DNA from: Escherichia coli
GTDB taxonomy: Bacteria; Pseudomonadota; Gammaproteobacteria; Enterobacterales; Enterobacteriaceae
Strand: one strand, 5' to 3'
Assembly: GCF_024502345.1 (NCBI RefSeq)
Contig: NZ_JALDNN010000001.1
Length of the DNA stretch: 64,000 nt
Position numbers and translations under genes: made by a program. The stretch's first letter is position 1, and each line of letters starts with the position of its first letter. Below the pieces are notes generated by a model, which saw nothing but the letters and a program-made list of their open reading frames with translations, had not been told where the DNA came from and searched no databases. Shown piece after piece: positions 20,744-63,730 of the stretch.

Positions 20744-20917
20744 GTAGGCCGGATAAGGCGTTCACGCCGCATCCGGCGACAGGAGCCAAATGCCGGATGC
20801 AACGCTGGCGCGTTTTATCCGGCCTACAATGAGTTCAACATACTGATTTGTATGGTTTTGTAGGCCGGATAAGGCGTTCAAGCCGCATCCGGCGACAGGA
20901 ACTAAATGCCGGATGCG
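20744..20917. repeat. BIME: cluster of about 4 REP units in alternating orientation
   Basis: Repeated GCCGGATAAGGCGTTCACGCCGCATCCGGC and its reverse complement. Confidence 0.85.
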
Positions 20918-33353: not shown

Positions 33354-33477
33354 TTCCTCACGATTCTCCTTTGACGATCGCACTTTTTGCTCGTTATGAT
33401 GGCGTCGCTAGCCTCAGTAAATCCTTACTCCGGCGGTGCGCAACCCGTGCGCGTGAACCACTATCTGAATGCTCATC

Positions 33478-47289: not shown

Positions 47290-49293
47290 TCATCCTTGTT
47301 GCTGAAGCATGGGGAATAATTGTTCGCACAGCAAAACGCAGTTATTCATTGCTTCTACCCGTGCCTCGCTTTCTGTATTACGAAATTGTCCCAATACATG
47401 TGCCAGCCGATAAAAAACCACCGCGGTGAGGTCATTCGCCAGCAACTCTGCCTGACCAATAGCACTCTGTTCCTGATAGCGCCAGCCGTTATGGAGCAGT
47501 TGAATAAGTAATGCCTGGCAGCGCATCAGCAACTGATGAGCAGTAGACGGCACAGGCAGAACGCTGACAGAAGGTAGTGATGCCACCACAGGCGCAGTTT
47601 CTGCGTCCAGCGCCCAGGCACGAGTCTTTGTCATCATTACCTGTGGTTCCAGTGTCAATTGCCCATCAACAAAACTGACAAAGCCAGAAACCAGACACAC
47701 GGGGTCGTCTGTTTGTTGCAAAAGCGCCGCCATGCGTTCAATGGCATAAGGCGCGCTGGCTGAGGCTGGCAGTGATAACGTCAGCAGATTATCTTCACCT
47801 TCGCCGCTGATTACCTGCGCATCCAGCGTCTGGCGGCTGCTATCCCAACCGAGCGAAATACACTCAGCGACCGGCAGAATAAATAAGTTATCGACCTGAT
47901 TAAGAGGCCGTATGCAGGAGGGGGGACGCTGGCGTAAATATTCCCGCAAAGCCACAATGCCCGGCTGGCGTAACGGCGCGCTCAACATTTGCCAGGCATC
48001 AGGCGACAGCGGCACAACGCTGCTTAAGCGGTTGCGGGTAGCTAACAGCAGCTCGCCATCGGCACTGCGTTTTGCTGCTTGTGAAACAATTTGCCCACCC
48101 GCCAGTGCGCCAGCCTGAAAACTAAACAGCCGACGCGTAGCTGCCGGTGAGTTTTCCTGTTCACTTCGCGGCCAACTGCGCGAAAGGTGCAAAATACTGC
48201 CGGTGTCGGGATCGGTAAACCAGATGCGTAAACCATAATGCTCAATATCCTGCCAGCAACGCATACCTAAAGACACCAGCCGCAGATGATCAAGCTTTGC
48301 TTCTCCGGCAATGCCAGAGCCAACGACCGTGCGCCACGGCACAGGAGGAACTTCACCAACACTGTCGCGCCGCGCCATCTCTTGTGCGCAATTTAATCGA
48401 CTGTTTAATGCCGCAAGCTGACGTAAGCATTCTCCGGCATGATAGTGGCTGGCGCGGGCGTGGAAGGCATCAACGCTGGCGCGCAGTTGCCGTAGCGATT
48501 CACTCACCCATCGCCAGTTGCAGCGTTCCGCTGCTTGCTGCGCGCGGCTGAAAGCGGCCTCGTAGTGAATAAGCGGCTGGCTGATGCCGCCCAGCCATAA
48601 TGCCTGGCTTAGTTGCTGAACATATTGACGACACGTTTTGCCTTCTTCGCTGGCAAACAGATCGTCAGATGATGTGACGTGTTCGCTGCGCATCTGCCAG
48701 ATTAAATGAGTCAATTCCGGTTGCTGCGCTTTTGCCTGGACAAAGGCCTGTACTGCCAGTACGACATGTTCGCAAAGTGTGCCTTCAATACAATCACAAC
48801 GGGCGAAACGAATGCTGCTACGGGAATAAAAACGCACATCGCTCATCGGTAAGCGGGCAGAGGGAATTTCGCCCGGCGTACAGAACAACTCAATGGTGAT
48901 GCCTTTAGCGACCAGCGCCTGCGCGCGTTTGCGGGTGGCATCGGGCAGGGTAGCCAGTTCTTCCAGCCAGATTGCCGGATCCCACTCTTCTTCTTTTTCT
49001 GTGGGCTGGACGGTGGCACAAAGTCGTTGATAACTTAACACCAGCATCACGCGATGACGGCACATGCCGCTGGCCCCGCAGCTGCACTGAGCCTCTTTCA
49101 GTGCCTGGCCGTTCGCCAGCTGGGTACGGACACCGTCACTGAAGGTGGCGATTAAAGCGCCGTTCTCATGGCTGATCTCCGGGACGTTGCCATTTTCCAG
49201 TTCCTTAAGACTGCGCTTAACAAAACCGGCATTGCTTAACGCTGTCAGGGCCTGCGGTGTCAGTTCTAATAATTCCGGACGTAGTGAATTCAT
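47290..49293 (-). CDS. yehQ: SWIM zinc-finger protein (667 aa from ATG 49293)
   Basis: ORF track (extension to 49317); two CxC...CxH SWIM-like motifs; ATG overlaps yehP stop (ATGA). Confidence 0.8.
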   Translation of the reverse strand: MNSLRPELLELTPQALTALSNAGFVKRSLKELENGNVPEISHENGALIATFSDGVRTQLANGQALKEAQCSCGASGMCRHRVMLVLSYQRLCATVQPTEKEEEWDPAIWLEELATLPDATRKRAQALVAKGITIELFCTPGEIPSARLPMSDVRFYSRSSIRFARCDCIEGTLCEHVVLAVQAFVQAKAQQPELTHLIWQMRSEHVTSSDDLFASEEGKTCRQYVQQLSQALWLGGISQPLIHYEAAFSRAQQAAERCNWRWVSESLRQLRASVDAFHARASHYHAGECLRQLAALNSRLNCAQEMARRDSVGEVPPVPWRTVVGSGIAGEAKLDHLRLVSLGMRCWQDIEHYGLRIWFTDPDTGSILHLSRSWPRSEQENSPAATRRLFSFQAGALAGGQIVSQAAKRSADGELLLATRNRLSSVVPLSPDAWQMLSAPLRQPGIVALREYLRQRPPSCIRPLNQVDNLFILPVAECISLGWDSSRQTLDAQVISGEGEDNLLTLSLPASASAPYAIERMAALLQQTDDPVCLVSGFVSFVDGQLTLEPQVMMTKTRAWALDAETAPVVASLPSVSVLPVPSTAHQLLMRCQALLIQLLHNGWRYQEQSAIGQAELLANDLTAVVFYRLAHVLGQFRNTESEARVEAMNNCVLLCEQLFPMLQQQG

Positions 49294-50426
49294 GACTGAA
49301 GATTCTCCGCAAGCCATGATGCCAGTTCGCCCGGTGTCATGGCGGCTATTTGTGCGCCGACATTAACCAGCGCCTGGGCCGTATCGCGGTCATAGCAAGG
49401 CGTTGCTGTGCTATCGAGCGCCGCCAGTCCCAGCACTTTGATGCCGCTCTGGACACACTTTTTCACCTGATGCGTCAGCAATGATGATGAACCCCCTTCG
49501 TAAAAATCGCTCACGAGGATAATGACGCTTTTTGCTGGTTGTTCAATAAGTTGCCGACCATATTCCACGGCACTGGCGATATTGGTCCCGCCGCCCAACT
49601 GTACTTTCATTAATAACTCTACCGGATCGGCAACGTCTGCCGTGAGATCAACGACGCTTGTGTCAAACGCCACCAGATGGGTACGAATGCCGGGTAACTG
49701 CCACAAACAGGCCGCCATCACCGCAGAGTGGATCACCGAGTCCACCATCGATCCGCTTTGATCAACCAGTAAGACCAGTTGCCATTGTTCACTGTGGCGT
49801 TTAATGCGGCTGTTAAAGCGGGGGGATTCGATATACAACTTGCCGTGTTGCGGGTGCCAGTGTTGCAGGTTGGCGCGCAGAGTACTTTTGAAATCAAAGT
49901 TTCGCGCCAGTGGAATAAATGAGCGGCGACGGCGATCGCGGACACCAGAAAAAGCCTGACGAACTTCCTTTGCCAGTCGAGCCATAATTTCTTCAACAAC
50001 CTGGCGCACTATCCGGCGGGCGGCAGCCAGTACTTCGGGGTTCATCAGATGTTTGGTGTGCAAAACGGCGCGTAGCAGACTTTCAGAAGGCTGCATACGT
50101 TCCAGCACGTCGAGATTCGTCACCACATCTTCAATGCCGTAGCGCAGTACGGCATCGCTTTCCAGCCGCTCAATCACCTGTTGCGGAAACAGCGTGTGAA
50201 TACTGTTGATCCACTCAGGGGTGGTGAGATTTGAGCTACCTAATCCACCGGAACGTTCACCACGCTGGAGCCGTTCAGGATCGCGCCCATACAGCCACTC
50301 CAGCGCGTGGTCTATCTGCCGGGCGTTGTCATCCAGCCCACAAAGCGTCGTTTCTGCCGCTTCGCCAAGAATTAATCGCCAGCGTTGTAGCTCACGGGTG
50401 GTCAGAAGATCGTTCAGTTCAGACAT
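49290..50426 (-). CDS. yehP: von Willebrand factor A (vWA) domain protein (378 aa from MSELNDLL start)
   Basis: ORF track (extension to 50654); MIDAS motif DQSGSM. Confidence 0.8.
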   Translation of the reverse strand: MSELNDLLTTRELQRWRLILGEAAETTLCGLDDNARQIDHALEWLYGRDPERLQRGERSGGLGSSNLTTPEWINSIHTLFPQQVIERLESDAVLRYGIEDVVTNLDVLERMQPSESLLRAVLHTKHLMNPEVLAAARRIVRQVVEEIMARLAKEVRQAFSGVRDRRRRSFIPLARNFDFKSTLRANLQHWHPQHGKLYIESPRFNSRIKRHSEQWQLVLLVDQSGSMVDSVIHSAVMAACLWQLPGIRTHLVAFDTSVVDLTADVADPVELLMKVQLGGGTNIASAVEYGRQLIEQPAKSVIILVSDFYEGGSSSLLTHQVKKCVQSGIKVLGLAALDSTATPCYDRDTAQALVNVGAQIAAMTPGELASWLAENLQS

Positions 50427-52698
50427 GGAAAACTCCCCAGTTTTGCAGCGATGCCAGTGCCTGCTGTTCGAGTTGTTGATGATGTGCAATGGCTTGTGGT
50501 GGACAATGCAACGGCATTTGCAGCGCCGAAACGGGAAGTTGCGCCAGTTGATAATGCTCAAGCACCTGATGCGCCAGCGTCCCGCGTTCTCGTGGTGGTA
50601 GCCAGGCCATCGCCGCGCGTAAATCGGGCAGGGCATTGATAAAATTGGCATCACTCAGTTGATTTAAATGACTGCTGAAACCGGCGATAAATGCCGGCTG
50701 ACAGGCCAGTTGATGGCGGGCCAGCGCCAGCAAACCGTGCAGCGCTTCGCCGGATTGTGCCGGGGATAACTGCGCCAGCATCGTCAGCGCCGCTTCGGCA
50801 CTAGCGTTGGGATGTTCCAGACGCATCAGTGCGCCAAGAGCCGCGCCGCGATCCAGCGCCGGGGCATGGATTGCCTGACTGCGTCGCTCCAGTAAGGCTA
50901 CCGCCGCAGAAAGAGAAACGCCGGGTAAATTAACGCCGCTATATAGATCGCGCAGGATATGGCAAAGCGCCTGCCAGCTATGCATGTGAGCGTGAAACTC
51001 CTTTTCATCTGGTCTGCCGTTAGATTCACACAGCCACAGCGTGCGATCGATAGCCGCGCATAACGTCGTTTGTAATATCTGCGCGCCTTGCATACCGCTA
51101 ATTTCATCCAGCCGCCATAAGGCATATAGCACTTCCAGCGCCTGGCCCATTTCGGCAAATTGATTTTCCTGGGCGATTAATAATGTGAGTTGCTCCAGTA
51201 ATTGTTGACTGAAGGACGCCAGACCCGCTAACGCCGCCTGGCTAAGACATGTGGTGATACTGCCGATTCCACCCGCGTCCAGCATATCGGTTTCTAATTT
51301 ATGGCGTGCGGCTTCCTGGAGTGTGGCACCAAAGCAGGCGGCCTCAATCAATGCCGCATGCTGGCTAAGCGGGCGGGTTAATTTCCAGCGTTCTTCACCG
51401 TTGCCTGCAAGTGTCAGTGTGCTTCCCTGCTGGCGTACAATCCCTGGGATCTCCAGTATTGCCAGCCGATGTAACACCTGACTTTGCGCTAGTCCATTGG
51501 GGTTAAAGCGATTTAAGGTAAGCTCCGCCGGAAGAGAGATTGCGGTACGTTCCAGTTCGCAGGTGACATCTTTTGGCAGAGGCGGTTGTGGCGTAGAAGG
51601 GGCAAGTTTACCGAATCCGTCACCCGCTAATGTGTCTATCAACGTTAGCAGAATCGGATCGGTATCGGGATGAATAACGCCGCGATAGCTCCATGGCAAC
51701 GGCGCATTCAGGGATTCTTTAATCAGCGAGCCTGCTAAGGCATCCAGCCAGTCAGTGCGTAACGGTAGTGTATGACCGCGCAACTGTGCCAGCGCCATCG
51801 CATGCAGATGAGCGGCAGCCATATCCGCGGTCGAAGCAGGCAAGTGGTGTTGGCGCAAACGGGTAAGAACCGTTTTTAGCAGTTGTTCTCCCGCCTGCTG
51901 TAAGCCCCACTGCCAGCACCAGCTTTGCCAGACCGGGGCAGGCATTCCTGAAAGGTATCCTGCCAGCACATCAAGGCGCTTTTCACTGTAGGGTGTGAGA
52001 TAACAACCTGTAACGGCATCTGCCAGCGAGGGCAATTCTGGCTTGTTAATGTCCTGCGGACATTCGCGCCACATTTTTGCCAGTGCCGGAGCGTGCCAGC
52101 CACCGCAGACGACTAACACGTCGCCATTGTTTTGCTGCATCGCCCATGCAATCCAGCGGGCCATGAAGGCTTCGCGCTGACGATTGAGAGCATCTCCGGG
52201 GGAATCGCCCCGCAGTTGTGCAAAATAGTGCGCCAGCGCAGAGGGTAATGCAGTTTGCTGGCTTTCATCTTCGAATAAGTGATCCCACAGGGTATCGCTG
52301 TTATCCATGCGGGTGGCACGCAGCAGTAAGGTCTGGCTTTCATCTTGCGTATCAGGCGAATCGTTCTCTTCTTCACTCTGCGCCCAGCAAGGCAAATCGA
52401 TGAAGTAAGTTTATGCCTGAATACGACGTGCGGCTTGTAGCGCCTGCCACTCCGGCGAAAATTCAGCAAATGGCGTCCAGGCACCACGCCCGGGGGCCGC
52501 ACCGTCCTGATACTGGCAATAACTGTAAATAGCTACCGGAAGCTGGTGGGCTAAAAACAGTTCGTCTACCCGGTCATTAAAATCAGCCGGGCCTTCAATC
52601 AACACGTATCGTGGCCGCTGGCTTTCGATTAATGATTTGACCAGCCGGGCGCAGGCCGGGCTATGATGCCGGATGCCGACAATTAACGGCTCGCTCAT
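50419..52698 (-). pseudogene. yehM: yehM reading frame (759 codons) interrupted by a single in-frame TAA at 52411-52413 (codon 96)
   Basis: ORF track entries 52411-52866 and 50419-52395 are in the same frame, separated only by TAA plus 5 sense codons; summed length equals the 759 aa I recall for intact YehM. Confidence 0.65.
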
Positions 52699-52708
52699 GC
52701 ATCTTTCC

Positions 52709-53797
52709 TCACGGCAGGCGGTGGCGGGCTTGATAATAAGCCTGCCAGTGAGCTTCTTTATGTGTGGCGACACGCTGTTCGAAGTAACGGCGCAGACGAG
52801 CGCGATCTTCTTCGTTATCTTTGACGATGGTTCCGGCAATACAGTCCACCAGATCGGCTGGCTCACCTGCGCGATTCGCTAAAAACCAGGCGCGGACGCC
52901 CACAGCGTGGGCCACGTTCACGGCTTCAGCGGTGGACATAATCGCTGTTAGTGTATCCATTGACGTTTTCTTTTCGCCGTTGGCACGCAGATCGCGGAAG
53001 GTGCGGACCAGTAACTCCAGTACCGCGTCAGGCACTTTATGCGGAATACCGCTATGGGCCAGCAAACGCGCCGAAGCACTGGCGACAAGCTCCAGCTCCT
53101 GGGCGAAATCCATAATCGGAAAGACAGTTTCAAAATCGAAGCGACGCTTTAGCGCAGCACTCATTTCATTGACGCCGCGATCGCGGGTATTGGCAGTGGC
53201 AATAATATTAAAGCCTTCTCGCGCATAGAGCTGACTGGCTTCACCAGTGAGTTCCGGCACCGTCATCACCCTGTCAGAAAGCATACCTAACAGACAGTCT
53301 TGCACTTCCAGCGGTGTACGCGTTATCTCTTCAAAACGGACGATTTTGCCGTCGCGCATTCCCTGGTAAAGCGGGGCAGGGACCAGCGCTTCCGTTGATG
53401 GACCATGATTGATAAGCAGGGCGTAGTTCCAGCCGTACTTGATTTGATCTTCGGTAGTAGATGCGCCGCCCTGGATGGTTAACCCGGCATCGCCGCTAAT
53501 AGAGGTTGCCAGTAATTCAGACAGGAGAGATTTTGCGGTGCCAGGTTCCCCCACCAACATCAAACCGCGTCCGGTGGCAAGAGTGACTAACATACGTTCG
53601 ACAGCGGAGGGACTAATCACCACTTTACGGCTAATATTTTGCGCGCTATCGCCAAGGATAAAAGCACGGGCCGCAGGCAAACTTAACTGCCAACCGGGCG
53701 GGCAAGGTGCGTTATCATTTTGTTTTAATTTTGCCAGTTCATCGGCGTATAACACAGCAGCAGGCGGACGCTGCAGATGATTATTCTGCGGTGACAT
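52709..53797 (-). CDS. yehL: MoxR-like AAA+ ATPase (362 aa from MSPQNNH start)
   Basis: ORF track (extension to 53863); Walker A GEPGTAKS and Walker B-like hhhhDE region. Confidence 0.85.
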   Translation of the reverse strand: MSPQNNHLQRPPAAVLYADELAKLKQNDNAPCPPGWQLSLPAARAFILGDSAQNISRKVVISPSAVERMLVTLATGRGLMLVGEPGTAKSLLSELLATSISGDAGLTIQGGASTTEDQIKYGWNYALLINHGPSTEALVPAPLYQGMRDGKIVRFEEITRTPLEVQDCLLGMLSDRVMTVPELTGEASQLYAREGFNIIATANTRDRGVNEMSAALKRRFDFETVFPIMDFAQELELVASASARLLAHSGIPHKVPDAVLELLVRTFRDLRANGEKKTSMDTLTAIMSTAEAVNVAHAVGVRAWFLANRAGEPADLVDCIAGTIVKDNEEDRARLRRYFEQRVATHKEAHWQAYYQARHRLP

Positions 53798-53908
53798 ATA
53801 TTCATCCCTGAAATGTATTAATGAAATAAACGATATTTTACGCGCAATAAATGTTTGGCGCATTAGTTGTTTGAGCGAAAAATATCTGGAAAGCAGATCA
53901 CAGTAAAT

Positions 53909-53991
53909 AAAAAAACCTGCTGGTGAGGCAGGTTCTTTTATTTACTATTTTCAGGCCTAACACCACAGCCTGTGCAACATCGTGTTCCAAC
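53909..53991 (-). ncRNA. orzP: Predicted ~80-nt divergent small RNA (OrzO/OrzP-like antitoxin RNA), copy A
   Basis: Minus-strand promoter (-35 TTGCAA 54021-54026, 17-bp spacer, -10 TATAAT 53998-54003); minus-strand intrinsic terminator (stem ACCTGC/GCAGGT then U7) at 53909-53934; 5' region repeats leader sequence at 54138-54157. Confidence 0.5.
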
Positions 53992-54020
53992 GAACGAATT
54001 ATAACCACGGCTGGACCCCG

Positions 54021-54048
54021 TTGCAATTAAGATAATGAGATTTATAAT
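54021..54048 (+). promoter_or_regulatory. Sigma70 promoter of peptide gene copy A (-35 TTGCAA, 16-bp spacer, -10 TATAAT); -35 shared with the divergent sRNA promoter
   Basis: Hexamers read directly; predicted TSS near 54056 gives a ~174-nt leader. Confidence 0.6.
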
Positions 54049-54229
54049 CCTGACTGTTGGGACGTTGCGCCGGATCGAACCTATTTCAAGTCCTGGCTAC
54101 CGGACGGGGGGTGCTGCAGGTAGTGCCCTGATCCGGAGTGCAACATCGTGGTCCAACATACGTAAACCAGTATCGACAGGCAGTGTAAGGGTAAGGTGCT
54201 GGTGTTGCGCTCCTTAATAAGGAGAGCGG

Positions 54230-54319
54230 ATGGACTCGCTGACACAAAAGTTAACCGTGCTCATTGCTGTACTGGAGCTATTAGTGGCTCTGTTACGGTT
54301 GATTGATTTGTTGAAGTAA
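54230..54319 (+). CDS. zorP: 29-aa hydrophobic peptide MDSLTQKLTVLIAVLELLVALLRLIDLLK (type I toxin candidate, ZorO/ZorP-like), copy A
   Basis: ATG with AAGGAG SD 7 nt upstream; single predicted TM helix; sequence as I recall ZorO-family toxins; symbol O versus P uncertain. Confidence 0.7.
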   Translation: MDSLTQKLTVLIAVLELLVALLRLIDLLK

Positions 54320-54341
54320 CGGGCAAATTGAAACGCATCTA

Positions 54342-54366
54342 AGGGGGAAAACCGCTTCCCCCTTTA
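54342..54366 (+). terminator. Terminator of peptide gene copy A
   Basis: AGGGGGA-loop-TCCCCCT followed by TTAATAAAAT. Confidence 0.55.
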
Positions 54367-54518
54367 ATAAAATGATTACTGTTTTTATTAATTCATCATA
54401 TAACTCATTTTTATTTATAAATTCATCGATTTTATATTCAACGCACCATTTGACCGGGATGTGAATATTTATGTTGGGCTATTGGCAAAAAATATCTGGA
54501 AAGTAGATCGCAGAAAAT

Positions 54519-54599
54519 AAAAAAACCTGCTGGTGAGGCAGGTTCTTTTATTTACTACAGTGACGCTAACTTGCTGATTGTGCAACATTTCGTACCAAC
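54519..54599 (-). ncRNA. orzO: Predicted ~80-nt divergent small RNA, copy B
   Basis: Minus-strand -10 TATAAT (54606-54611) and shared -35 TTGCAA (54629-54634); terminator hairpin plus U7 at 54519-54543; 18-nt complementarity (one G-U) to leader at 54749-54766. Confidence 0.5.
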
Positions 54600-54628
54600 G
54601 AATAAATTATATCCATATCCACACTCCA

Positions 54629-54656
54629 TTGCAATTCAGTGAGTGAGATTTATAAT
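54629..54656 (+). promoter_or_regulatory. Sigma70 promoter of peptide gene copy B (-35 TTGCAA, 16 bp, -10 TATAAT)
   Basis: Read directly; same geometry as copy A. Confidence 0.6.
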
Positions 54657-54837
54657 CCTGCCCGTTGGGAGGTTGTGCCGGATCGGACCAATTTTAAGTC
54701 CTGGCTGCCGGACGGGTGGTGCCGCAGGCGGTGCCCTGATCCGGAGAGCAACGTTTCGTACCAACATACGTAAACCAGTATCAACAGGCAGTGTAAGGGT
54801 AAGGTGCTGGTGTTGCGCTCCTTAATAAGGAGAGCGG

Positions 54838-54927
54838 ATGGACACGCTGACACAAAAGTTAACCGTGCTCATTGCCGTACTGGAGTTATTAGTGGCTCTG
54901 TTACGGTTGATTGATTTGTTGAAGTAA
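54838..54927 (+). CDS. zorO: 29-aa hydrophobic peptide MDTLTQKLTVLIAVLELLVALLRLIDLLK (type I toxin candidate), copy B
   Basis: ATG with AAGGAG SD; differs from copy A by S3T only. Confidence 0.7.
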   Translation: MDTLTQKLTVLIAVLELLVALLRLIDLLK

Positions 54928-54949
54928 CGGGCAAATTGAAACGCATCTA

Positions 54950-54974
54950 AGGGGGAATACCGTTTCCCCCTTTA
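54950..54974 (+). terminator. Terminator of peptide gene copy B
   Basis: AGGGGGAA-loop-TTCCCCCT then TTTAAG. Confidence 0.5.
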
Positions 54975-54982
54975 AGAAAGCT

Positions 54983-55036
54983 ATACTCGTCATACTTCAA
55001 GTTGCATGTGCTGCGACTTTAATTATCTAGAGTATA
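54983..55036. repeat. Truncated (short-form) ERIC element: left and right termini without the central part
   Basis: TATACTCGTCATACTTCAAGTTGCATGTGCTGCG + ACTTTAATTATCTAGAGTATA; compare full copy at 23437-23563. Confidence 0.7.
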
Positions 55037-55354
55037 TTATTCTATTTCTTGGTTGAATATATTCTGTAGTTCACGATTAAAAATTGCTATTACAGTTTCA
55101 GGTGATTCACCTCGTAATTTCCGCTCATCAATACACTCATCTCTTATATAAATCAACGCATCATTTATTAGCGGGTCAGCATCTTCTCGATCACGTTGAT
55201 GAAATGTTGGATGTAGCCGGAATCGCTCCAGTCGATAGACGGAACCTGTAAATAATTCAGAGCATTTATGGATCTCAAGTCTGAAGGAAAACGGATCTTC
55301 AGGTACAGGGACCTCATAATCGTAAATAGCAACTAGCTCTTTTTGCACGATCAT
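55037..55354 (-). CDS. yehK: Uncharacterised small protein, 105 aa
   Basis: ORF track; synteny between yehL and yehI. Confidence 0.7.
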   Translation of the reverse strand: MIVQKELVAIYDYEVPVPEDPFSFRLEIHKCSELFTGSVYRLERFRLHPTFHQRDREDADPLINDALIYIRDECIDERKLRGESPETVIAIFNRELQNIFNQEIE

Positions 55355-55414
55355 CGCTTTCCCCGCTGGTAAGTCGTGTAGATAACGGGCAGTCGCATCA
55401 CTGCCCGCTGTGTT

Positions 55415-57622
55415 TTAATGGAAAATGACGTCAGGTGCGCTTAACGCCTCACTCAAATCAAACACATCAAGTTCGGCAAAAGTGACGGATTTATTGTCAC
55501 GGTACACTCGAAGAGAACGGAAGCTCATTAGCGCTTTGCTATCAACATTGTAGTGGTTAAAACCGGGTGAAAACTTAAGGACCAGCCGGTACTCGCCCAG
55601 GTCATAGACAAATGCATCCTCATAGCCTGACTCCCAGCCTTTGTATCGCATTCCCATAAGCTGCCCAACGGTAGCGGATTTACCTTCCCAGCGAGTCAGG
55701 CTGTTACTGGTTGACTCGTCAGGTGTGAGCAGCACCGTGCACCGCGCCAACTGGCGAAAAGGCGGCATAATTTCGTAATCGGCAAAAAGCTGTGCAAATT
55801 CACTGCGCATTTCTACTGTCATTTCTAACGGGTGGGCAATGCCAATCAGAGCGTCCGCAGGCAGGTCAATTGGCTCATCTTGCGCATTGCAGAACTCCCC
55901 CTCTGCGGCCACACGAAAGGCGTTGAGTAAACAACGCGGTTCATTTGCCGGATAAGCCCCCCATATTAATCGCTGGGTAACCAGACGGGTAAAGGGATGA
56001 TTAACAAACAGAGAATGAAAATCTGCCAGCGACCAGCGTCGGGTGGTACGTAGGGCCGTTTCAAGACGCGGGAGCAGGTTTTTGCTCACCTGAGTGGCAT
56101 CTTTTTTTAGCCCTTTTAGTCGGGCCAGTGCCTCGGGCGCTTTCAGTTGATCGTCATCGGCGCGCAACCGGGGAACGCTTTTCTGGCGAACGTTTTGCTG
56201 ATCAAAGATAACCGGGTTGAGGTTTTCATCGAAGCGAACGGTAAACTGCCGGGGACCAAAATCAAAACTCAACGCCTGCGGATCATCAAGGCCCAGGGTT
56301 GGGACTAATCTGTCCGCTAGCTCTTCCTGGCTTAGCCCGCGATTTTCTGCGACCACCTGAAGAAATTCCGCCGCGTTATCACGTAAGGGGCGGGATTTCG
56401 CCCGTTGCGATATATGATGCAGCTGTATCAGCGCCATATCATTATTCATCAGGGTAAGGATGTTCAGGCCACTGACAGCACGGGCAGATTTGCCTTCTTG
56501 TGGCCAGCCGAGGATCTGTGTCGTTAGATCCCGTGCCGTGCTTTCGTCACCAAAGAGACTTAACGCCAGAAATGCCCAGTTGTCTTTTACGGGGGCACCA
56601 GCTTGTTGCCACGCAGTGAAGAGATCCCAGGCAAAAGCTGCCAGCGTTTGTGGCTGGCAGAACGTTTTCAGTTGTTCCAGCCCGCTATAAAAACGTCCCC
56701 CCTGGGTAAAGCGCAGCATTTCGCCGATAATTTCCAGAGCGTCATCGGTAACAGGTTGATTATTAGTGATAAGGCGCGGCCTGGACCACATTTGCGGATG
56801 CCAGAAATCAGGGGCTTTTGGAATGCGTGCCGGGTAAATCTCTATTGGACTCTGTTTAAGTAATTGTTCCAGGGCAGGCCATAGATCTGTACGCTGCCAA
56901 CGATTGGCTACAGTTTGTAGCAATTCGCCATGCCCATGTTCGTAAAGTAAACGCAGGGCAAGTAATGCAGCTTCGCTTTTATCGCTAGATTTGGTGAAGA
57001 CAAGAGGGATAAGTGCAGTAGCCGTATGTTCCGGCCATTGTAAAATCCACTGGCGAGCCAGATTACGCTGGCCCGCAAAACGCTGCCAGCAGCTTTCCTC
57101 TGCCAGAGAGAGATGCTTACGCAGTCGGAGATCGAATTCGTTATAGGTTTCTGAGCGATAACCATAGCCATAATCCTCGTCCTGATACTGCAATGTCACT
57201 ACCAGAGGATCACTCTCATAACACCGCGCAATAAACTGGCGTGCAATCACCACCTCAGTCGCATATTCCAGCCCCTCTTGTTGGACGATTTCGTCGAGCA
57301 ACTGTTGGCTGTCATTTTGCGCGATACAGGCTAGCGCCGCCATTGTCCGGGGCGGGATTGAGGGTTTGTGTTCGCCGATCAAGTTGATGGCCTGCGTGAT
57401 GGCGGACTGCCACTCCAGTGAAAAATTTTCATAACGCCAGACAATGTTTTTTTTCTTCTCAGCTTTTTGTAGCAATTCATCACCCAGTGTCTGAATGATG
57501 CTTTCAGTGATAACAGGCACTGGTTCGCCCGGCCAATTGCGATGGCTGAGTGGTGTTTTACCATTTTTATATTTCAGTTCCAGTTGGGCGTTATCAGCCA
57601 GCCACGGTAATTCCTTGTCCAT
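55415..57622 (-). CDS. yehI: DUF4132-family protein, 735 aa; shorter paralog of the adjacent 1264-aa gene
   Basis: ORF track; ATG with AAGGAAAG SD 9 nt after the upstream stop; aligns to the longer paralog from about residue 105 and skips its central ~420 residues. Confidence 0.7.
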   Translation of the reverse strand: MDKELPWLADNAQLELKYKNGKTPLSHRNWPGEPVPVITESIIQTLGDELLQKAEKKKNIVWRYENFSLEWQSAITQAINLIGEHKPSIPPRTMAALACIAQNDSQQLLDEIVQQEGLEYATEVVIARQFIARCYESDPLVVTLQYQDEDYGYGYRSETYNEFDLRLRKHLSLAEESCWQRFAGQRNLARQWILQWPEHTATALIPLVFTKSSDKSEAALLALRLLYEHGHGELLQTVANRWQRTDLWPALEQLLKQSPIEIYPARIPKAPDFWHPQMWSRPRLITNNQPVTDDALEIIGEMLRFTQGGRFYSGLEQLKTFCQPQTLAAFAWDLFTAWQQAGAPVKDNWAFLALSLFGDESTARDLTTQILGWPQEGKSARAVSGLNILTLMNNDMALIQLHHISQRAKSRPLRDNAAEFLQVVAENRGLSQEELADRLVPTLGLDDPQALSFDFGPRQFTVRFDENLNPVIFDQQNVRQKSVPRLRADDDQLKAPEALARLKGLKKDATQVSKNLLPRLETALRTTRRWSLADFHSLFVNHPFTRLVTQRLIWGAYPANEPRCLLNAFRVAAEGEFCNAQDEPIDLPADALIGIAHPLEMTVEMRSEFAQLFADYEIMPPFRQLARCTVLLTPDESTSNSLTRWEGKSATVGQLMGMRYKGWESGYEDAFVYDLGEYRLVLKFSPGFNHYNVDSKALMSFRSLRVYRDNKSVTFAELDVFDLSEALSAPDVIFH

Positions 57623-57631
57623 GCTCTTTCC

Positions 57632-60600
57632 TTATTCAAACAGGGCTTCAATATCGTTAATTAGCTCGCTGGCGGTGATGGCATCGAGTACGGAGAGCTG
57701 CGCTTCCTGTGTTGAATTACTCCCCCAGCCATAGCTTTCCGCTTTGCCTTCCCATAGCCACAGCTTGCTTAAGAGCTGCTCAGCGCTAAGTTCGGCTGGT
57801 GACATACCCACTGCAAAGCCTTCATCGATTTCCATGATTAACGACCAGCGGCCCAGAGGTTTGATCATCCAGCCGATCCAGCCTCCATCCTGTGGTTCGC
57901 CCTTTATCCAGCCTTTATTCGCCAGCCCCATTACCCGACCGCTCGGGCATTTTCTGCTTGCCCAGCGGGTCAGTTCGCTGGCATTGCGCTCGGTTTCTGT
58001 CAGGGCGTAACTGTTACGGTCGAGCTGGCGGAACGGCGGTAGCAGTTCGTAGTCGGCAAAAAGCTGCCCAAATGCGGCGGCATCCGTCGGTGATATTTCC
58101 AGAACGTGAGGAATACCAACAGAGATATCGCCTTCCGGCAGGGTGAAAAGATCATCGTCAGCGGTGCTGTAGCTGTTATCTTCCGCTACGCGAAAGCAAG
58201 CCAGTAGCTGGTTTTCGGCGCTATAAACACCCCAAATCAGACGGCGGGTTAAGTGGCGAACCAACGGATGCTCAACCAGGAAGAGCTGGAAGTTTTCCGG
58301 CGACCAGCGGCGGCGCAGGCACATGGCGGATTCCAGCCTTGCTACCTGCTGGGCGGCGACGGTACGCGCATCTTTTTTCAGCAATTTGTAGCGGTTAACC
58401 GCATCGTTCGCCTGTGATTCATCATCGCTTTTATTGGGTTTAGGTAAGTCTTTCAGGCGGCTGCCGGAAACATCACGCACAAACGGTTTTAAGGTTTCAT
58501 CAAAGCTGACGGTGAACTGGCGTGGGCCAAAATCCAGCAGCAACGAACCGTTATCATCCAGACCGAGATCCGGTGCTAACCGATCTTCAAGCTCCGCCAC
58601 TGTCAGTTCGCGACTTTCGGCAATGTCGGCAATTTTCTCTTTCGCCCGCTCCTGTAATGCTTTGAATTTCAGTTTCTGGGCAATGCCGTTAAGCTGCATC
58701 AGGGCGATATCACTACCGATAGCGGCGAGAATATCCAACCCAACGGTGGCGCGTTTATGCTGAGATTCGCCAGGCCAGGCGCGGATTAATGGCGTCAGTT
58801 TGCGGGCGGTGTCATCGTTGCCGAGAACACCTAACGCAATGAACGCCCAGCTTTCTTTCGATGGCGCGCCCGCAGTCAGCCAGGCGGTAAACAGATCCCA
58901 GGCAAATTCAGCCAGTGAGTCGGCGGTACAGGCATCTTTCACCTGCAATAATCCCGGATACAGAGCCTCTTCCTGAGGGAAGCGGAGCATTTCACCGAGG
59001 TGCTGGAGTGCGCTATCGGGCAGTGATTGGGCGTTTGCTTTTAATACCGGGCGCGTCCAGAGCGATGGCTGATAAAAGGCCGGAAGAGTGGGGATTTTTG
59101 TCGGGTGATTATCTAAGGGATCGAGCGCAAGCAGAGCGTTCACCGCGTCTGTTACTTCCGGCTGGTTATAACGCCGGGCGATTTCTTGCAGTAATGGCTG
59201 ATGACCATTTTCGGTAAGCATACGCAAGGCAGCGCGGGCGTTATCCTGTGCTTCACCGGCTTTGCCGAGCGCCGCAGGCAGCAGGCCGGTAAGGGCATGT
59301 TCCGGGTATTTCAGCAGCCAGGTGCGGGCGTCTTGTCGTAGGGTTTTGAGTTTGTTGAAGGCGCGGGCGACGGCAGGAGCTAGCTCACTCGCTGCGAAGT
59401 AATTCGTGATGGGCAAGGCTTCCTGCGGATAGCGTGTAATTGAGTTAACTAAACCAGGTAAACCTTTGAGTCCAAAATGTAACATGGCGTATTCGGTATC
59501 GGTATGTGGAGATAGAGTAAGGGCATTCCATGCTTTTACTGCTTTCTCCAGCGGCAATGTTGTCAAAATCCCCAAATGCCAATAATGCCCGGTAGGTGAA
59601 TGAAACACCTTAAATTCACTTATTAAGGTTGAATAATCTTCATTTAGCCATGCCTCAACTACCGCTTCGGGAGCTTTAATATATGTACCAGCGATCCGTC
59701 GTTGAAAACCCATCCTTGCCAACAGGTTGGTAGTACTTTCTTCATGGCTAACCGTGATGTGTTGTGAATACCAGATATATTTCGCCAAAAGTTGATTACT
59801 GATTTCTTCTGTCATATAACAGATTGGCTCAATGCCTAATGGCGCTAAATCCAGCACCGGAATCGGCGATTTTTTCTTTTTCGAAAGCCATGGTGGGGAG
59901 ACTACTATGGCAGGCAGTAGATCGGCGCAGGCATGGTTTGAGGGCTGTGTCAGTTGTTGCTGGCATGATTTCAGTACGGCAACTGCGGGTGTCGAGAGCC
60001 AGGGAAGGACCTGTTCTGCCAGTGCTGGTTGTGAGATAAGCATTGTCATTAGCATAATGCGCCAACTGTTCTCTTCTTTTTGCCCAAGAAGTTCCGTCAG
60101 TGCCGCCATTGCTGCATGTGGGAACGCAGCAATGGCTTTCGTCATCCGATCGTGACAGCGTTTAGTTTGCCCGGCTACACGTATAAGCAGTGTCAATGCG
60201 ACCGGATGATTGATATGACGCAACACATCGGCGCAGTAGTCACTTGCGGCATAGGGAGCAAATCGGGGCAGGGCTGCAACACCTTGCTCCTGTAATACGG
60301 TGGCTGACCATATCGCACCACAATAGTAATCATCAAAAATGGCATATGGCTCGTGATATTTTTCTAATGAGGCAAGAATGTGCTCATCAGTCGCCACTAT
60401 TTTTAACCACTCAAGCGAGGGTAATTTTTTTTGCCCCAGTAGACGCTGGGCAATTTCATGTGCAATTTCTGGTTTTTCGGGTAATAACAAAGCAATTAAT
60501 GGTTGCCGCCATTCTGGAATATGTGGAATTGCGGCAATAAGTTTTTGTGCACATTTTTGCCAGAGAGACTCTTCCGCCAGTGATAAATGTTTACGTAGGC

Positions 60601-61426
60601 GTAATTCAAATCTGGAATATTGCTCCAAGTAGTTAGGTGCAATGCCAGACGGCAGAATAATAATGACATTATTCGCATAATCCCATTCAATATCAATCTG
60701 TTGAAGGTGTATTATTACATCAGTAGCATATGCCAGACCGCCTTCCTGGACGATCTGATCCATAACATCCTCACGCACTTTATATCTTGTGCATTTCATT
60801 TCAAGTGCCGTGAGTACAGCCATTACTGGTGATGGTAACTGTGTTGTTTTCAGGCCGTCGATCTGACTGATCGCCTGGGCGACGGTGTTTTGCCATTCTA
60901 AAGAACAGGCGCTGAAGTCAAATGTGGCTGTTTTATTATCCCGTTGCGACACACTACAGGCTAAGCGACGTAAGTGGGTCAATTTGTCTGCTTGCTGAAC
61001 AGGAACTTCGGGAAAGCGGCGATGGCTTAACGTGGTGTGTACAACTTCGGGCGGAAAAACGACAGCAATATCTTTCGCCAGCCACGGTAAAACAGCATCT
61101 GTATTTTTGTCAGCCGCACGGGTTTCTGCTACGAAAGAGGGTTGTTCCTGAATAATGGTGGATAAGTCCGCTACCTTGAGAGAGCCCGTTACCGTTTGGG
61201 AAGGTTGCAAAGAATTATCCTTCGCTTGCTCCATATATCCCTTCTTCACCTTCTCCGCAATCAGCTTCAGTTCCGCTTTTGCCGCCGCTGCAGCATCTGC
61301 AAAGCTTTTTACCTGACTTTGCCCGTTAGTGCCGACTTTACCCCAGTTGATATGCAGCTCGTTGTCTTGCTGCTCCACCGCCCAGAATTTATGTGATTTT
61401 TCGTCCTGATAGATATAACTCTTCAT
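57632..61426 (-). CDS. molR: WGR-domain plus DUF4132 protein, 1264 aa, intact reading frame
   Basis: ORF track; N-terminal WGR-like motif (KFWAVEQQDNELHINWGKVGTNGQ); position between metG and yehI. Confidence 0.75.
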   Translation of the reverse strand: MKSYIYQDEKSHKFWAVEQQDNELHINWGKVGTNGQSQVKSFADAAAAAKAELKLIAEKVKKGYMEQAKDNSLQPSQTVTGSLKVADLSTIIQEQPSFVAETRAADKNTDAVLPWLAKDIAVVFPPEVVHTTLSHRRFPEVPVQQADKLTHLRRLACSVSQRDNKTATFDFSACSLEWQNTVAQAISQIDGLKTTQLPSPVMAVLTALEMKCTRYKVREDVMDQIVQEGGLAYATDVIIHLQQIDIEWDYANNVIIILPSGIAPNYLEQYSRFELRLRKHLSLAEESLWQKCAQKLIAAIPHIPEWRQPLIALLLPEKPEIAHEIAQRLLGQKKLPSLEWLKIVATDEHILASLEKYHEPYAIFDDYYCGAIWSATVLQEQGVAALPRFAPYAASDYCADVLRHINHPVALTLLIRVAGQTKRCHDRMTKAIAAFPHAAMAALTELLGQKEENSWRIMLMTMLISQPALAEQVLPWLSTPAVAVLKSCQQQLTQPSNHACADLLPAIVVSPPWLSKKKKSPIPVLDLAPLGIEPICYMTEEISNQLLAKYIWYSQHITVSHEESTTNLLARMGFQRRIAGTYIKAPEAVVEAWLNEDYSTLISEFKVFHSPTGHYWHLGILTTLPLEKAVKAWNALTLSPHTDTEYAMLHFGLKGLPGLVNSITRYPQEALPITNYFAASELAPAVARAFNKLKTLRQDARTWLLKYPEHALTGLLPAALGKAGEAQDNARAALRMLTENGHQPLLQEIARRYNQPEVTDAVNALLALDPLDNHPTKIPTLPAFYQPSLWTRPVLKANAQSLPDSALQHLGEMLRFPQEEALYPGLLQVKDACTADSLAEFAWDLFTAWLTAGAPSKESWAFIALGVLGNDDTARKLTPLIRAWPGESQHKRATVGLDILAAIGSDIALMQLNGIAQKLKFKALQERAKEKIADIAESRELTVAELEDRLAPDLGLDDNGSLLLDFGPRQFTVSFDETLKPFVRDVSGSRLKDLPKPNKSDDESQANDAVNRYKLLKKDARTVAAQQVARLESAMCLRRRWSPENFQLFLVEHPLVRHLTRRLIWGVYSAENQLLACFRVAEDNSYSTADDDLFTLPEGDISVGIPHVLEISPTDAAAFGQLFADYELLPPFRQLDRNSYALTETERNASELTRWASRKCPSGRVMGLANKGWIKGEPQDGGWIGWMIKPLGRWSLIMEIDEGFAVGMSPAELSAEQLLSKLWLWEGKAESYGWGSNSTQEAQLSVLDAITASELINDIEALFE

Positions 61427-61525
61427 CCGCGTTTCCTGTATTTATATCCAGTTATAAGCGGATGCTAGCAGTTAATGAAAAAAATTAAGAGCGTTGAACA
61501 AACAAGAAAACAACTTTAGGAATTT

Positions 61526-61557
61526 ATAAAGAAAAGGCGCTGTCGATGCAGCGCCTT
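61526..61557 (-). terminator. Rho-independent terminator of metG (minus strand)
   Basis: Minus-strand AAGGCGCTG-CATCGA-CAGCGCCTT then TTCTTTAT. Confidence 0.8.
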
Positions 61558-61566
61558 GAAGGGGGA

Positions 61567-63600
61567 TTATTTCACCTGATGACCCGGTTTAGCACCAGCA
61601 TCCGGGCTTAGCAGGAAAATATCTTTCCCGCCAGGACCGGCAGCCATCACCATGCCTTCGGAGATACCGAAGCGCATTTTACGTGGTGCCAGGTTAGCCA
61701 CCATAATGGTGTGACGACCAATCAGTGCCTGCGGATCCGGGTAAGCAGAACGAATGCCGGAGAAGACATTACGCTTTTCGCCGCCGAGATCCAGCGTCAG
61801 GCGTAGCAGTTTGTCAGAACCTTCAACAAACTCTGCGTTTTCAATCAGCGCCACGCGCAGGTCAACTTTGGCGAAGTCGTCAAAGGTGATGGTTTCCTGA
61901 ATCGGATCATCTGCCAGCGGGCCAGTTACCGGCGCGGCAGCTGCTTTCACTTCTTCTTTAGACGCTTCCACCAGTGCTTCAACCTGCTTCATATCTATGC
62001 GGTTATACAGCGCCTTGAACGGATTCACTTTATGGCCCAGCAGCGGTTGCTGGATACCATCCCAGGTCAGTTCCGTATTAAGGAATGCTTCTGCGCGCTC
62101 GGTCAGTTTCGGCAGTACCGGCTTCAGGTAAGTCATCAGCACGCGGAACAGGTTTATGCCCATTGAGCAAATTGCCTGCAGGTCGGCATCGCGGCCTTCC
62201 TGTTTCGCTACCACCCACGGAGCCTGTTCATCGACATAGCGGTTAGCCAGATCAGCCAGCGCCATGATTTCGCGCACTGCTTTACCAAATTCGCGGCTTT
62301 CCCACGCTTCACCAATCACTTCAGCGGCATCAGTGAAGGTTCTGTACAACTGCGGGTCAGCCAGTTCGCTTGCCAGCACGCCGTCAAAACGCTTGTTGAT
62401 AAAGCCCGCGTTGCGGGAGGCCAGGTTAACCACTTTGTTCACGATATCGGCATTCACGCGCTGAACGAAATCTTCCAGGTTGAGATCGATATCATCAATG
62501 CGCGAAGAGAGTTTCGCAGTGTAGTAGTAACGCAGGCTGTCGGCGTCAAAATGATTCAGCCAGGTGCTGGCTTTAATAAAGGTACCGCGAGACTTAGACA
62601 TCTTCGCGCCGTTCACCGTCACATAGCCATGAACAAACAGGTTGGTCGGCTTGCGGAAGTTGCTGCCTTCCAGCATTGCTGGCCAGAACAGACTGTGGAA
62701 GTAAACAATATCTTTACCGATGAAGTGGTACAGCTCGGCGGTGGAGTCTTTCTTCCAGTATTCATCGAAGCTTACGCTGTCGCCGCGCTTGTCGCACAGA
62801 TTCTTGAAAGAACCCATATAGCCAATCGGCGCATCTAGCCAGACGTAGAAATATTTACCCGGCGCGTTCGGAATTTCAAAACCGAAGTACGGCGCGTCGC
62901 GGGAGATATCCCACTGTTGCAGGCCAGATTCAAACCACTCCTGCATTTTATTTGCCACCTGCTCCTGCAACGCACCGCTGCGGGTCCATGCCTGCAACAT
63001 TTCGCTGAAAGAGGGCAGATCAAAGAAGAAGTGTTCAGAATCACGCATTACCGGCGTAGCGCCAGAAACCACCGATTTCGGCTCGATCAATTCAGTCGGG
63101 CTGTAGGTCGCGCCGCAGACTTCGCAGTTATCGCCGTATTGATCCGGGGATTTACATTTCGGGCAGGTGCCTTTTACAAAACGGTCCGGCAGGAACATGC
63201 CTTTTTCCGGATCGTACAGCTGAGAGATGGTGCGGTTTTTAATAAAACCGTTTTCTTTCAGGCGAGAGTAGATAAGTTCTGACAACTGGCGGTTCTCTTC
63301 GCTGTGCGTCGAGTGATAGTTGTCATAGCTGATGTTAAAGCCTGCGAAATCAGTCTGATGCTCCTGACTCATTTCGCCAATCATCTGCTCCGGGGTGATA
63401 CCAAGCTGCTGAGCTTTCAGCATGATCGGTGTACCGTGGGCATCGTCGGCGCAGATGAAGTTGACCTCGTGGCCGCGCATTCGCTGGTAACGGACCCAGA
63501 CATCAGCCTGGATGTGCTCCAGCATATGGCCGAGGTGGATTGAGCCGTTAGCGTACGGCAGTGCGCACGTCACCAGAATTTTCTTCGCGACTTGAGTCAT
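61567..63600 (-). CDS. metG: Methionyl-tRNA synthetase (677 aa from MTQVAKK start)
   Basis: ORF track (extension to 63609); class I HIGH (HLGH) and KMSKS motifs, zinc knuckles CPKC...CEVC. Confidence 0.97.
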
Positions 63601-63730
63601 AGTAGGCATTACTTCTTAATAGTGAAAAGGGGTTAGATAGTACCAAATGGGAAAATGTTAAGTAAGTACTTCTCTATATTCTTCAGGTAAACTATCAGCT
63701 GATGGTTTATCTATACAAAAAAGGAGTCGG

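Follow-up and report, generated by a model that had tools for sequence, protein, structure and literature searches.

In the window, the 64,000-nt stretch of Escherichia coli DNA analyzed here, yehI was found to carry an exact in-frame deletion of 1425 bp that is limited to one small clonal lineage. The best explanation, which we consider very probable, is a clonal deletion that arose via microhomology, with the function of the product lost or weakened in a decaying accessory module. The deletion is an ordinary strain-specific event in a dispensable, often-damaged cluster, not a new gene arrangement.

As recognized in a preliminary description, two tandem WGR/DUF4132 paralogues are encoded on the minus strand, at 57632..61426 and 55415..57622. 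The first was identified by ORF calling, Pfam, an NCBI protein match, and K-12 annotation as an intact molR-type gene of 1264 aa, whose exact protein is present in NCBI ('WGR and DUF4132 domain-containing protein / MolR family'). Its layout is a WGR domain followed by a helical solenoid and DUF4132; Pfam placed WGR (PF05406) at residues 8-69 (8.2e-18; 64.7 bits, cut-off 22) and DUF4132 (PF13569) at residues 988-1173 (6.7e-51; 173.2 bits, gathering cut-off 27). The domains found in MolR give no support to its historical name, 'molybdate metabolism regulator.' The second ORF was assigned by BLASTP, blastn, and codon mapping to a deletion allele of yehI. Its 735-aa product (WP_060659351.1) contains DUF4132 as the sole domain (residues 479-663, 158.7 bits) and no WGR. 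BLASTP confirmed the collinear two-block similarity described previously, which is far above chance: residues 110-316 of the long protein matched 2-206 of the short one (33% identity, E 3e-22), and 682-1204 matched 171-688 (43% identity, E 1e-133). The alignment does resume after a central gap, but the long protein has WLLKYPEH from residue 703 onward rather than near 745, and the gap, put earlier at ~420 residues, amounts to about 400 in MolR numbering and to exactly 475 in YehI.

Between the molR stop codon (TAA, 57634-57632) and the yehI ATG at 57622 lie 9 nt (GGAAAGAGC), and an AGGA Shine-Dalgarno-like motif was read in this interval (57623..57637, minus strand) 7 nt 5' of the ATG. Since the distance between the two starts (61426 - 57622 = 3804) is divisible by 3, both ORFs lie in one frame, again as first described. 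The short spacing suggests cotranslation, and molR and yehI may thus be translated from a single mRNA. Gene order in the window (metG-molR-yehI-yehK-yehL-yehM) is that of strains H1 and K-12, and the two ORFs are the known E. coli tandem paralogues molR and yehI. In K-12, molR is split into yehF and the pseudogene yehH, whereas the copy in the window is whole, as in most strains.

K-12 yehI (b2118, NP_416621.1, 'DUF4132 domain-containing protein YehI') spans 3633 bp and encodes 1210 aa, in agreement with the preliminary description, and orthologues from Escherichia, Klebsiella, and Serratia are 1195-1216 aa long. All share the start MDKELPWLADNA and none has a WGR domain, so the missing WGR N-terminus of the short protein does not belong to the lesion. 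Like the window gene, K-12 yehI lies between molR and yehK, begins with MDKELPWLADNA, and encodes DUF4132 without WGR, and its product is 95% identical to the window allele over both retained parts (1-185 and 646-1210). What sets the window allele apart is the absence of residues 182-656 together with the substitutions K20N and A91P. These two derived substitutions are both nonsynonymous, with 0 synonymous ones, counts too small for a selection test. Over the retained parts, DNA identity to H1 yehI was 99.8%. By location (the molR-yehK interval, 3' of metG) and by identity the gene is a yehI orthologue, but at 735 aa and with residues 182-656 gone it has neither the length nor the continuous helical region of the others; it counts as a deletion allele rather than a normal member of the orthologue group.

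Comparison with the nearest genome (NZ_CM136169.1, 99.9% identical to the window) defined the lesion exactly and bore out the earlier suspicion that a longer copy had been shortened internally. Blastn returned two blocks (99.9% and 99.8% identity) offset by 1425 bp, equivalent to 475 codons, and overlapping by 11 nt at 57079..57089 (minus strand). Against each of the other E. coli genomes examined, too, the deletion measures exactly 1425 bp and keeps the frame. Codon mapping showed that residues 1-181 are joined in frame to 657-1210 of the normal 1210 (junction R181-F657; the 30-mer across it is GCTGCTGGCAGCGTTTTGCGGGCCAGCGTA). Base-by-base comparison of the junction with the left and right copies revealed an exact 4-bp microhomology, CGTT (57079-57082), within an imperfect 11-bp direct repeat (10/11; CTGGCAGCGTT / CTGGCACCGTT), and no long repeat at the deletion endpoints. 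The proposal of a deletion between repeat units of the protein did not hold up, as yehI contains 121 11-bp pairs of this kind (10/11 nt match; 36-72 in shuffles). From these junction features we infer that a single illegitimate recombination or replication slippage, crossing over within the CGTT common to the chance microhomologies CTGGCAGCGTT and CTGGCACCGTT, would have removed 1425 bp (residues 182-656) from the yehI of the strain's lineage. With 1425 divisible by three, the product reads as one 735-aa ORF, in which the N-terminal alpha/beta domain would be fused straight to the conserved C-terminal half, i.e., the last solenoid helices and DUF4132.

In the AF2 model of full-length YehI (pLDDT 89.2, pTM 0.78), alpha/beta domains stand at both ends, the N-terminal one reaching to about residue 160, and residues 162-913 between them are helical. 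On this model, the deleted part is predicted to be most of a HEAT/ARM-like helical solenoid, including the family-invariant LPxxLxxPPW loop, and the deletion cuts helix 176-192 mid-helix. In an alignment of 80 family sequences, W434 of the PPW motif was invariant, the sole such residue outside the C-terminal half, and it lies in the deleted part together with P206, P334, P426, P432, P433, A647, and A651, each at least 90% conserved. The most conserved stretch (residues ~650-1200) was kept (mean conservation 0.59 vs 0.31). The all-helical region 162-913 is built like HEAT/ARM alpha-solenoid scaffolds such as importins, PP2A PR65, FANCI, and condensin HEAT subunits. Foldseek of the full-length model against the PDB gave no match at E<=0.001 and only generic HEAT/ARM solenoids (best E 5e-3, TM about 0.1); such insignificant matches mean that the resemblance is architectural and not one of homology. 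A PDB sequence search found no match for YehI and matched MolR to 2ra8 in the WGR region alone, and NCBIfam gave sub-threshold matches only (the WGR region to a Leptospira family, and a GvpN/MadB-type ATPase).

Judged from what has been removed, the allele most likely represents a loss or reduction of function. The intact paralogue molR could cover the function of yehI. Since the frame is kept, the most conserved part is retained, and the AF2 folds are confident, a shortened yet active protein is conceivable: the solenoid would be a tolerant spacer, and the deletion would have been retained or selected for a changed reach or partner specificity, with the N-terminal domain and DUF4132 still active. 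The intact frame and the retention of the best-conserved 550 C-terminal residues agree with such a protein. In AF2, moreover, both retained parts of the 735-aa protein were confident (pLDDT 91.2) and only residues 181-184 at the junction scored low, a prediction that cannot judge stability and shows only that the retained bodies are autonomous. Naturally short family members of 635-760 aa occurred in the 50% representative set, but at least one of them, P0170, looks like a fragment beside full-length paralogues. Hybrids and further sporadic in-frame yehI deletions exist in E. coli (P0124, ~537 aa missing; P0021, 145 aa; P0022, 97 aa; P0019, 37 aa), but in-frame variants are over-represented in public data, as out-of-frame ones are called as fragments. 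Furthermore, W434 and several of the conserved residues are lost, helix 176-192 is severed, orthologue length is tightly held across genera, and the allele is restricted to one clone whose partner gene yehM is itself interrupted by a nonsense codon. We therefore consider an active short YehI unlikely.

A broader version of this idea, to which we give still less credence, regards the metG-adjacent tandem DUF4132 array as a fast-diversifying, SOS-induced sensor or scaffold whose solenoid length is tuned by in-frame deletions and paralogue hybrids. If so, the 735-aa allele would be a working short variant, and the N-terminal domain and DUF4132 module would be able to act without the central solenoid and PPW motif.

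The window itself derives from one assembly, and a collapsed repeat or misjoin might have created the junction. The same junction recurred, however, in three more assemblies from different sources and assemblers (GCA_050022275.1, GCA_001484085.1, and the Logan assembly of the raw run SRR24000611), each of which covers 8.6-14.2 kb of the window with an identity of at least 99.986%. Its endpoints have only 11 bp in common, too short a match to collapse in assembly, and an artefact is thus very improbable. The yehM stop described below (Q96*) was common to the window and every junction-bearing assembly reaching yehM. Outside this lineage, the 401-bp junction probe was found in one piece in none of 5426 complete E. 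coli genomes, and the full-coverage E. coli matches listed each measured ~8.0 kb, as against 6.6 kb in the window. The deleted segment was present in all 3910 complete genomes covering at least 80% of the region, and the 735-aa protein formed a singleton cluster. A YehI of ~735 aa is therefore not the common form, given these counts and the orthologue lengths of 1195-1216 aa.

Recombination between the paralogues had also been proposed and was considered here as an unequal homologous exchange of molR with yehI. In other E. coli, molR::yehI hybrids that begin with WGR and end as YehI (P0036, P0063, P0135) demonstrate that paralogue recombination does happen at this locus. In the window, however, both junction flanks are yehI (99.8-99.9% to that of the nearest relative), which argues against an exchange between paralogues. 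The upstream molR is complete at 1264 aa, and the similarity of the two genes at the DNA level is negligible in this genome (limited to segments of 49 bp at 82% and 143 bp at 67%), so that we rejected this origin as hardly credible. Least credible of all, and likewise rejected, is an ancestral form of 735 aa that reached 1210 aa by insertion, an idea supported solely by the existence of short family members. The segment is present in MolR, with which full-length YehI aligns end to end (2-1163 with 110-1204), in orthologues of other genera, and in the 3910 genomes mentioned above, as well as in every one of the 79 homologues that were aligned to YehI (occupancy mostly 0.8-1.0).

The genes following yehI on the minus strand form the remainder of a conserved module. 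They are yehK (55037..55354; ORF of 105 aa without a family match in Pfam), yehL (52709..53797; MoxR-type AAA+ ATPase, AAA_5 1.1e-33, annotated in H1 as a 362-aa ATP-binding protein), yehM (50419..52698; DUF5682), yehP (49290..50426; VWA protein, CoxE-like, VWA_CoxE 6.6e-72), and yehQ (47290..49317; SWIM zinc-finger protein by Pfam, 7e-08, and K-12 annotation). The AAA_5, DUF5682, and VWA_CoxE genes are thus co-linear with the DUF4132 gene. ORF analysis, Pfam, and comparison showed that codon Gln96 of yehM has become a stop (in-frame TAA, 52411-52413), and the split gene was likewise called in an independent assembly (L002); with yehI internally deleted, the module is not intact. The yehK-yehL spacer harbors a zorO/zorP-orzO/orzP type I toxin-antitoxin tandem (53870..54980; ORFs, Rfam, blastn), consisting of two ~608-bp units 88% identical to each other, with 29-aa zor ORFs at 54230-54319 and 54838-54927 and Rfam OrzO-P matches at 53909-53984 and 54519-54592. 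This pair is not part of the DUF4132 module. In the unrelated GCA_039533615.1 (locus L013), whose DUF4132 homologue has ~27% identity to YehI, the order WGR-DUF4132 / small ORF / AAA_5 (MoxR) / DUF5682 / VWA matches molR/yehI-yehK-yehL-yehM-yehP in both order and domains. E. coli differs from this type of operon by two or three tandem DUF4132 paralogues, and this strain additionally by the zor-orz pair between yehK and yehL. Some DUF4132 homologues are solitary, e.g., adjoining ssb and uvrA. A search of the anti-phage defence HMMs of PADLOC-DB 2.0 with MolR, YehI, YehK, YehL, YehM, YehP, and YehQ matched 0 families at E<=0.01. The module appears to consist of a WGR/solenoid/DUF4132 scaffold that acts together with MoxR AAA+ ATPase, DUF5682, VWA, and SWIM proteins.

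By pattern matching and inspection of the sequence, a LexA (SOS) box-like palindrome, CTGGATATAAATACAG (CTG-N10-CAG), was located at 61436..61451 (minus strand), ending 9 nt upstream of the molR ATG and conserved in K-12, ST131, and H1 although the sequence around it has diverged. One-mismatch matches to the stricter CTGT-N8-ACAG were as frequent across the window as expected by chance (18 vs 18.2), and the argument for an SOS box consequently rests on position and conservation. For K-12, molR is listed among the genes under LexA control whose SOS box is known (PMC6590174), and together with the motif this makes it probable that the molR-yeh module is SOS regulated. BglJ-RcsB also activates the molR promoter (PMC3950696), and in Deinococcus, WGR and DUF4132 genes are derepressed upon DdrO depletion (PMC8533742). 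A promoter and terminator scan of 54900-61700 showed no promoter enrichment, and the metG terminator alone stood out.

The same locus is damaged in other strains. In O157:H7 the DUF4132 paralogues are pseudogenised and yehM has an internal stop, and ST131 L1a has a TnMB1860 transposon insertion in the DUF4132 region (PMC9334617). These and the other metG-DUF4132-yeh variants are independent lesions with different endpoints and mechanisms, and none has the 1425-bp deletion of the window. Repeated breakage in successful E. coli lineages (K-12, O157:H7, ST131 L1a, and that of the window) argues that the module is dispensable under common conditions; it seems to be an accessory system that bears an SOS box and can be dispensed with. 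As the conserved partner yehM is interrupted by a nonsense codon in this clone as well, we infer that decay in the lineage extends to the module as a whole, molR-yehI-yehK-yehL-yehM-yehP-yehQ.

The significance of the allele beyond annotation is small. WP_060659351.1 should be annotated as an internally deleted yehI allele instead of a distinct short DUF4132 protein, and the junction combined with yehM Q96* provides a handy clonal marker of the lineage. For functional study of the WGR/DUF4132-MoxR-VWA module, the natural in-frame deletion might provide a ready-made domain-deletion construct.

The genes of the locus are all encoded on the minus strand, in the order metG (61567-63609), a 1264-aa ORF (molR, 57632-61426), a 735-aa ORF (yehI, 55415-57622) and yehK (55037-55354), followed by yehL, yehM, yehP and yehQ. 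Pfam assigned WGR and DUF4132 domains to MolR, but DUF4132 only to YehI. As the preliminary description had stated, molR and yehI lie in one frame, separated by TAA plus 9 nt, and a Shine-Dalgarno-like motif (AGGA) is located 7 nt 5' of the yehI ATG. BLASTP likewise bore out the two collinear blocks proposed between the proteins (MolR 110-316 versus YehI 2-206, 33% identity; MolR 682-1204 versus YehI 171-688, 43%, E 1e-133); the numbering was slightly off, since WLLKYPEH, placed near residue ~745 of MolR, is at residue 703.

A Megablast search with positions 55000-61600 matched 5425 of 5426 complete E. coli genomes, and the genes beneath the match were annotated as metG, a DUF4132 protein, yehI and yehK. 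All full-coverage matches listed consisted of at least two pieces and spanned ~8.0 kb or more, compared to 6.6 kb in the window, and a 401-bp probe over the suspected junction was contiguous in none of the 5426 complete genomes. Against the nearest genome, NZ_CM136169.1 (L001), two blocks (99.9% and 99.8% identity) were offset by 1425 bp and overlapped by 11 nt. The left copy at the junction reads CTGGCAGCGTT and the right copy CTGGCACCGTT; since the window carries CTGGCAGCGTT followed by the right-hand sequence, the crossover falls within the common CGTT (57079-57082). Codon mapping revealed that R181 is fused to F657, with residues 182-656 (475 codons) lost in frame. In K-12, yehI comprises 3633 bp and encodes 1210 aa, in line with the ~1210 aa of the preliminary description, and its start, MDKELPWLADNA, is the same as in the window. 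Full-length YehI aligned end to end with MolR (YehI 2-1163, MolR 110-1204, 37%), and thus the missing central segment is the deleted part of yehI. The WGR domain, also noted as missing from the short copy, is normally absent from YehI. In NZ_CM136169.1, yehI is annotated as frameshifted: a G7 run (L001 10058-10064) corresponds to G6 in the window, and the additional G is either genuine or an error made in sequencing the homopolymer.

Internal deletion between repeat units, one of two origins suggested initially, held in part: 1425 bp were deleted, but the endpoints are chance microhomologies rather than repeats. Within yehI, there were 121 pairs of 10/11-nt matches, 67 of them in frame; shuffles gave 36-72 pairs. 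The segment was presumably removed by replication slippage, or else by illegitimate recombination of another kind that uses microhomology. The second suggestion, recombination between the paralogs, is excluded as homologous exchange, because both flanks of the junction are yehI and the molR/yehI DNA similarity in this genome is limited to two stretches, one of 49 bp (82%) and one of 143 bp (67%). Assembly repeat collapse was rejected as not credible, since just 11 bp are alike at the endpoints and three further assemblies carry the deletion.

The identical protein is present in NCBI (WP_060659351.1; KUG75173.1, KUG75877.1 and MCQ7034325.1), forms a singleton 90% cluster and is encoded on four contigs. 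Compared with the window, three of these contigs (GCA_050022275.1, GCA_001484085.1 and Logan SRR24000611) carry the same deletion and show 99.986-100% identity over 8.6-14.2 kb. The allele represents a single clonal lineage and is not recurrent. Other rare in-frame yehI deletions (~537, 145, 97 and 37 residues in the public E. coli proteins P0124, P0021, P0022 and P0019) and molR::yehI hybrid ORFs, joining the WGR paralog to yehI (P0036, P0063 and P0135), have endpoints unlike those of the window allele. No new kind of element is involved: an already known, though uncharacterized, gene has undergone a genuine in-frame microhomology deletion that is specific to this lineage.

A second lesion was found in yehM (50419-52698, minus strand; DUF5682). 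Codon 96 is TAA (52411-52413; Gln96*), splitting the gene into 95-aa and 658-aa ORFs; it is CAA in the nearest relative, K-12 and O157. This stop is common to the independent same-clone sister assemblies reaching yehM. The locus has been broken independently in K-12 (molR split), O157:H7 (pseudogenized DUF4132 paralogs and a different yehM stop) and ST131 L1a, in which a resistance transposon inserted in the DUF4132 region (PMC9334617). DUF4132 paralog number and integrity differ by lineage (L006 675-11891; L007 1-9616): ST131-type genomes contain three tandem paralogs, all intact, and O157:H7 has one paralog with an internal stop, another split or truncated, an intact yehI and a yehM with an internal stop. 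The molR-yehI interval is also unusually diverged within the species; among 5427 E. coli records, identity to 55000-61600 is only 90-95% for 2238 and 80-90% for a further 33, and G+C falls to 0.44-0.47 over the molR 5' half (59500-61500).

The yehK-yehL spacer (53870-54980) contains a tandem pair of ~608-bp units (88% identity), with 29-aa ZorO/ZorP-like toxin ORFs, MD[S/T]LTQKLTVLIAVLELLVALLRLIDLLK, on the plus strand (54230-54319 and 54838-54927) and Rfam OrzO-P antitoxin RNAs on the minus strand (53909-53984 and 54519-54592). In contrast, K-12 lacks these units and has a 306-bp spacer. Rfam matches at 20747-20824 (naRNA4, a REP-derived nucleoid-associated RNA) and 33393-33473 (Peptidase-S11 cis-regulatory RNA) are unrelated to the yehI deletion.

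The DUF4132 gene forms a conserved unit with yehL, yehM and yehP. The unrelated assembly GCA_039533615.1 encodes a homolog ~27% identical to YehI in the same gene order as the E. coli module (WGR-DUF4132, small ORF, AAA_5, DUF5682, VWA). Some DUF4132 homologs are solitary; on a metagenomic contig (L008 10001-17782), one with WGR and DUF4132 lies beside ssb and a uvrA-like gene, without MoxR/VWA partners. PADLOC models matched no component of the module. A LexA-box-like palindrome, CTGGATATAAATACAG (CTG-N10-CAG; 61436-61451), ends 9 nt 5' of the molR ATG and is kept in K-12 and ST131 although the surrounding promoter sequence differs. PMC6590174 lists molR as a LexA-regulated gene for which an SOS box is known, and BglJ-RcsB activates the molR promoter (PMC3950696). 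In Deinococcus, DdrO depletion derepresses WGR and DUF4132 genes (PMC8533742).

YehI orthologs in Escherichia, Klebsiella and Serratia are 1195-1216 aa long. Using an alignment of 80 sequences built from a family search that yielded 5715 clusters, AlphaFold2 modeled YehI residues 1-1200 (pLDDT 89.2, pTM 0.78) as an alpha/beta domain at the N-terminus (up to ~residue 160), a region made up entirely of helices (162-913) and a C-terminal alpha/beta domain with DUF4132; Foldseek against the PDB returned weak HEAT/ARM solenoid neighbors only. In this model, the N-terminal edge of the deletion interrupts helix 176-192, and its C-terminal edge falls between two helices, 644-656 and 658-670. Conservation in the alignment was highest from ~residue 650 on (0.59, versus 0.31 in the deleted part), but the deleted part includes the invariant W434 within an LPxxLxxPPW loop, as well as P206, P334, P426, P432, P433, A647 and A651, each at least 90% conserved. 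In a model of the 735-aa protein, both retained bodies were confident (pLDDT 91.2), junction residues 181-184 scored <50 and pTM fell to 0.69. The two derived yehI substitutions of the window lineage are both nonsynonymous. That the short protein acts as a functional "mini-YehI" is improbable; most likely, the deletion inactivates or weakens YehI in a module that the clone is already losing.
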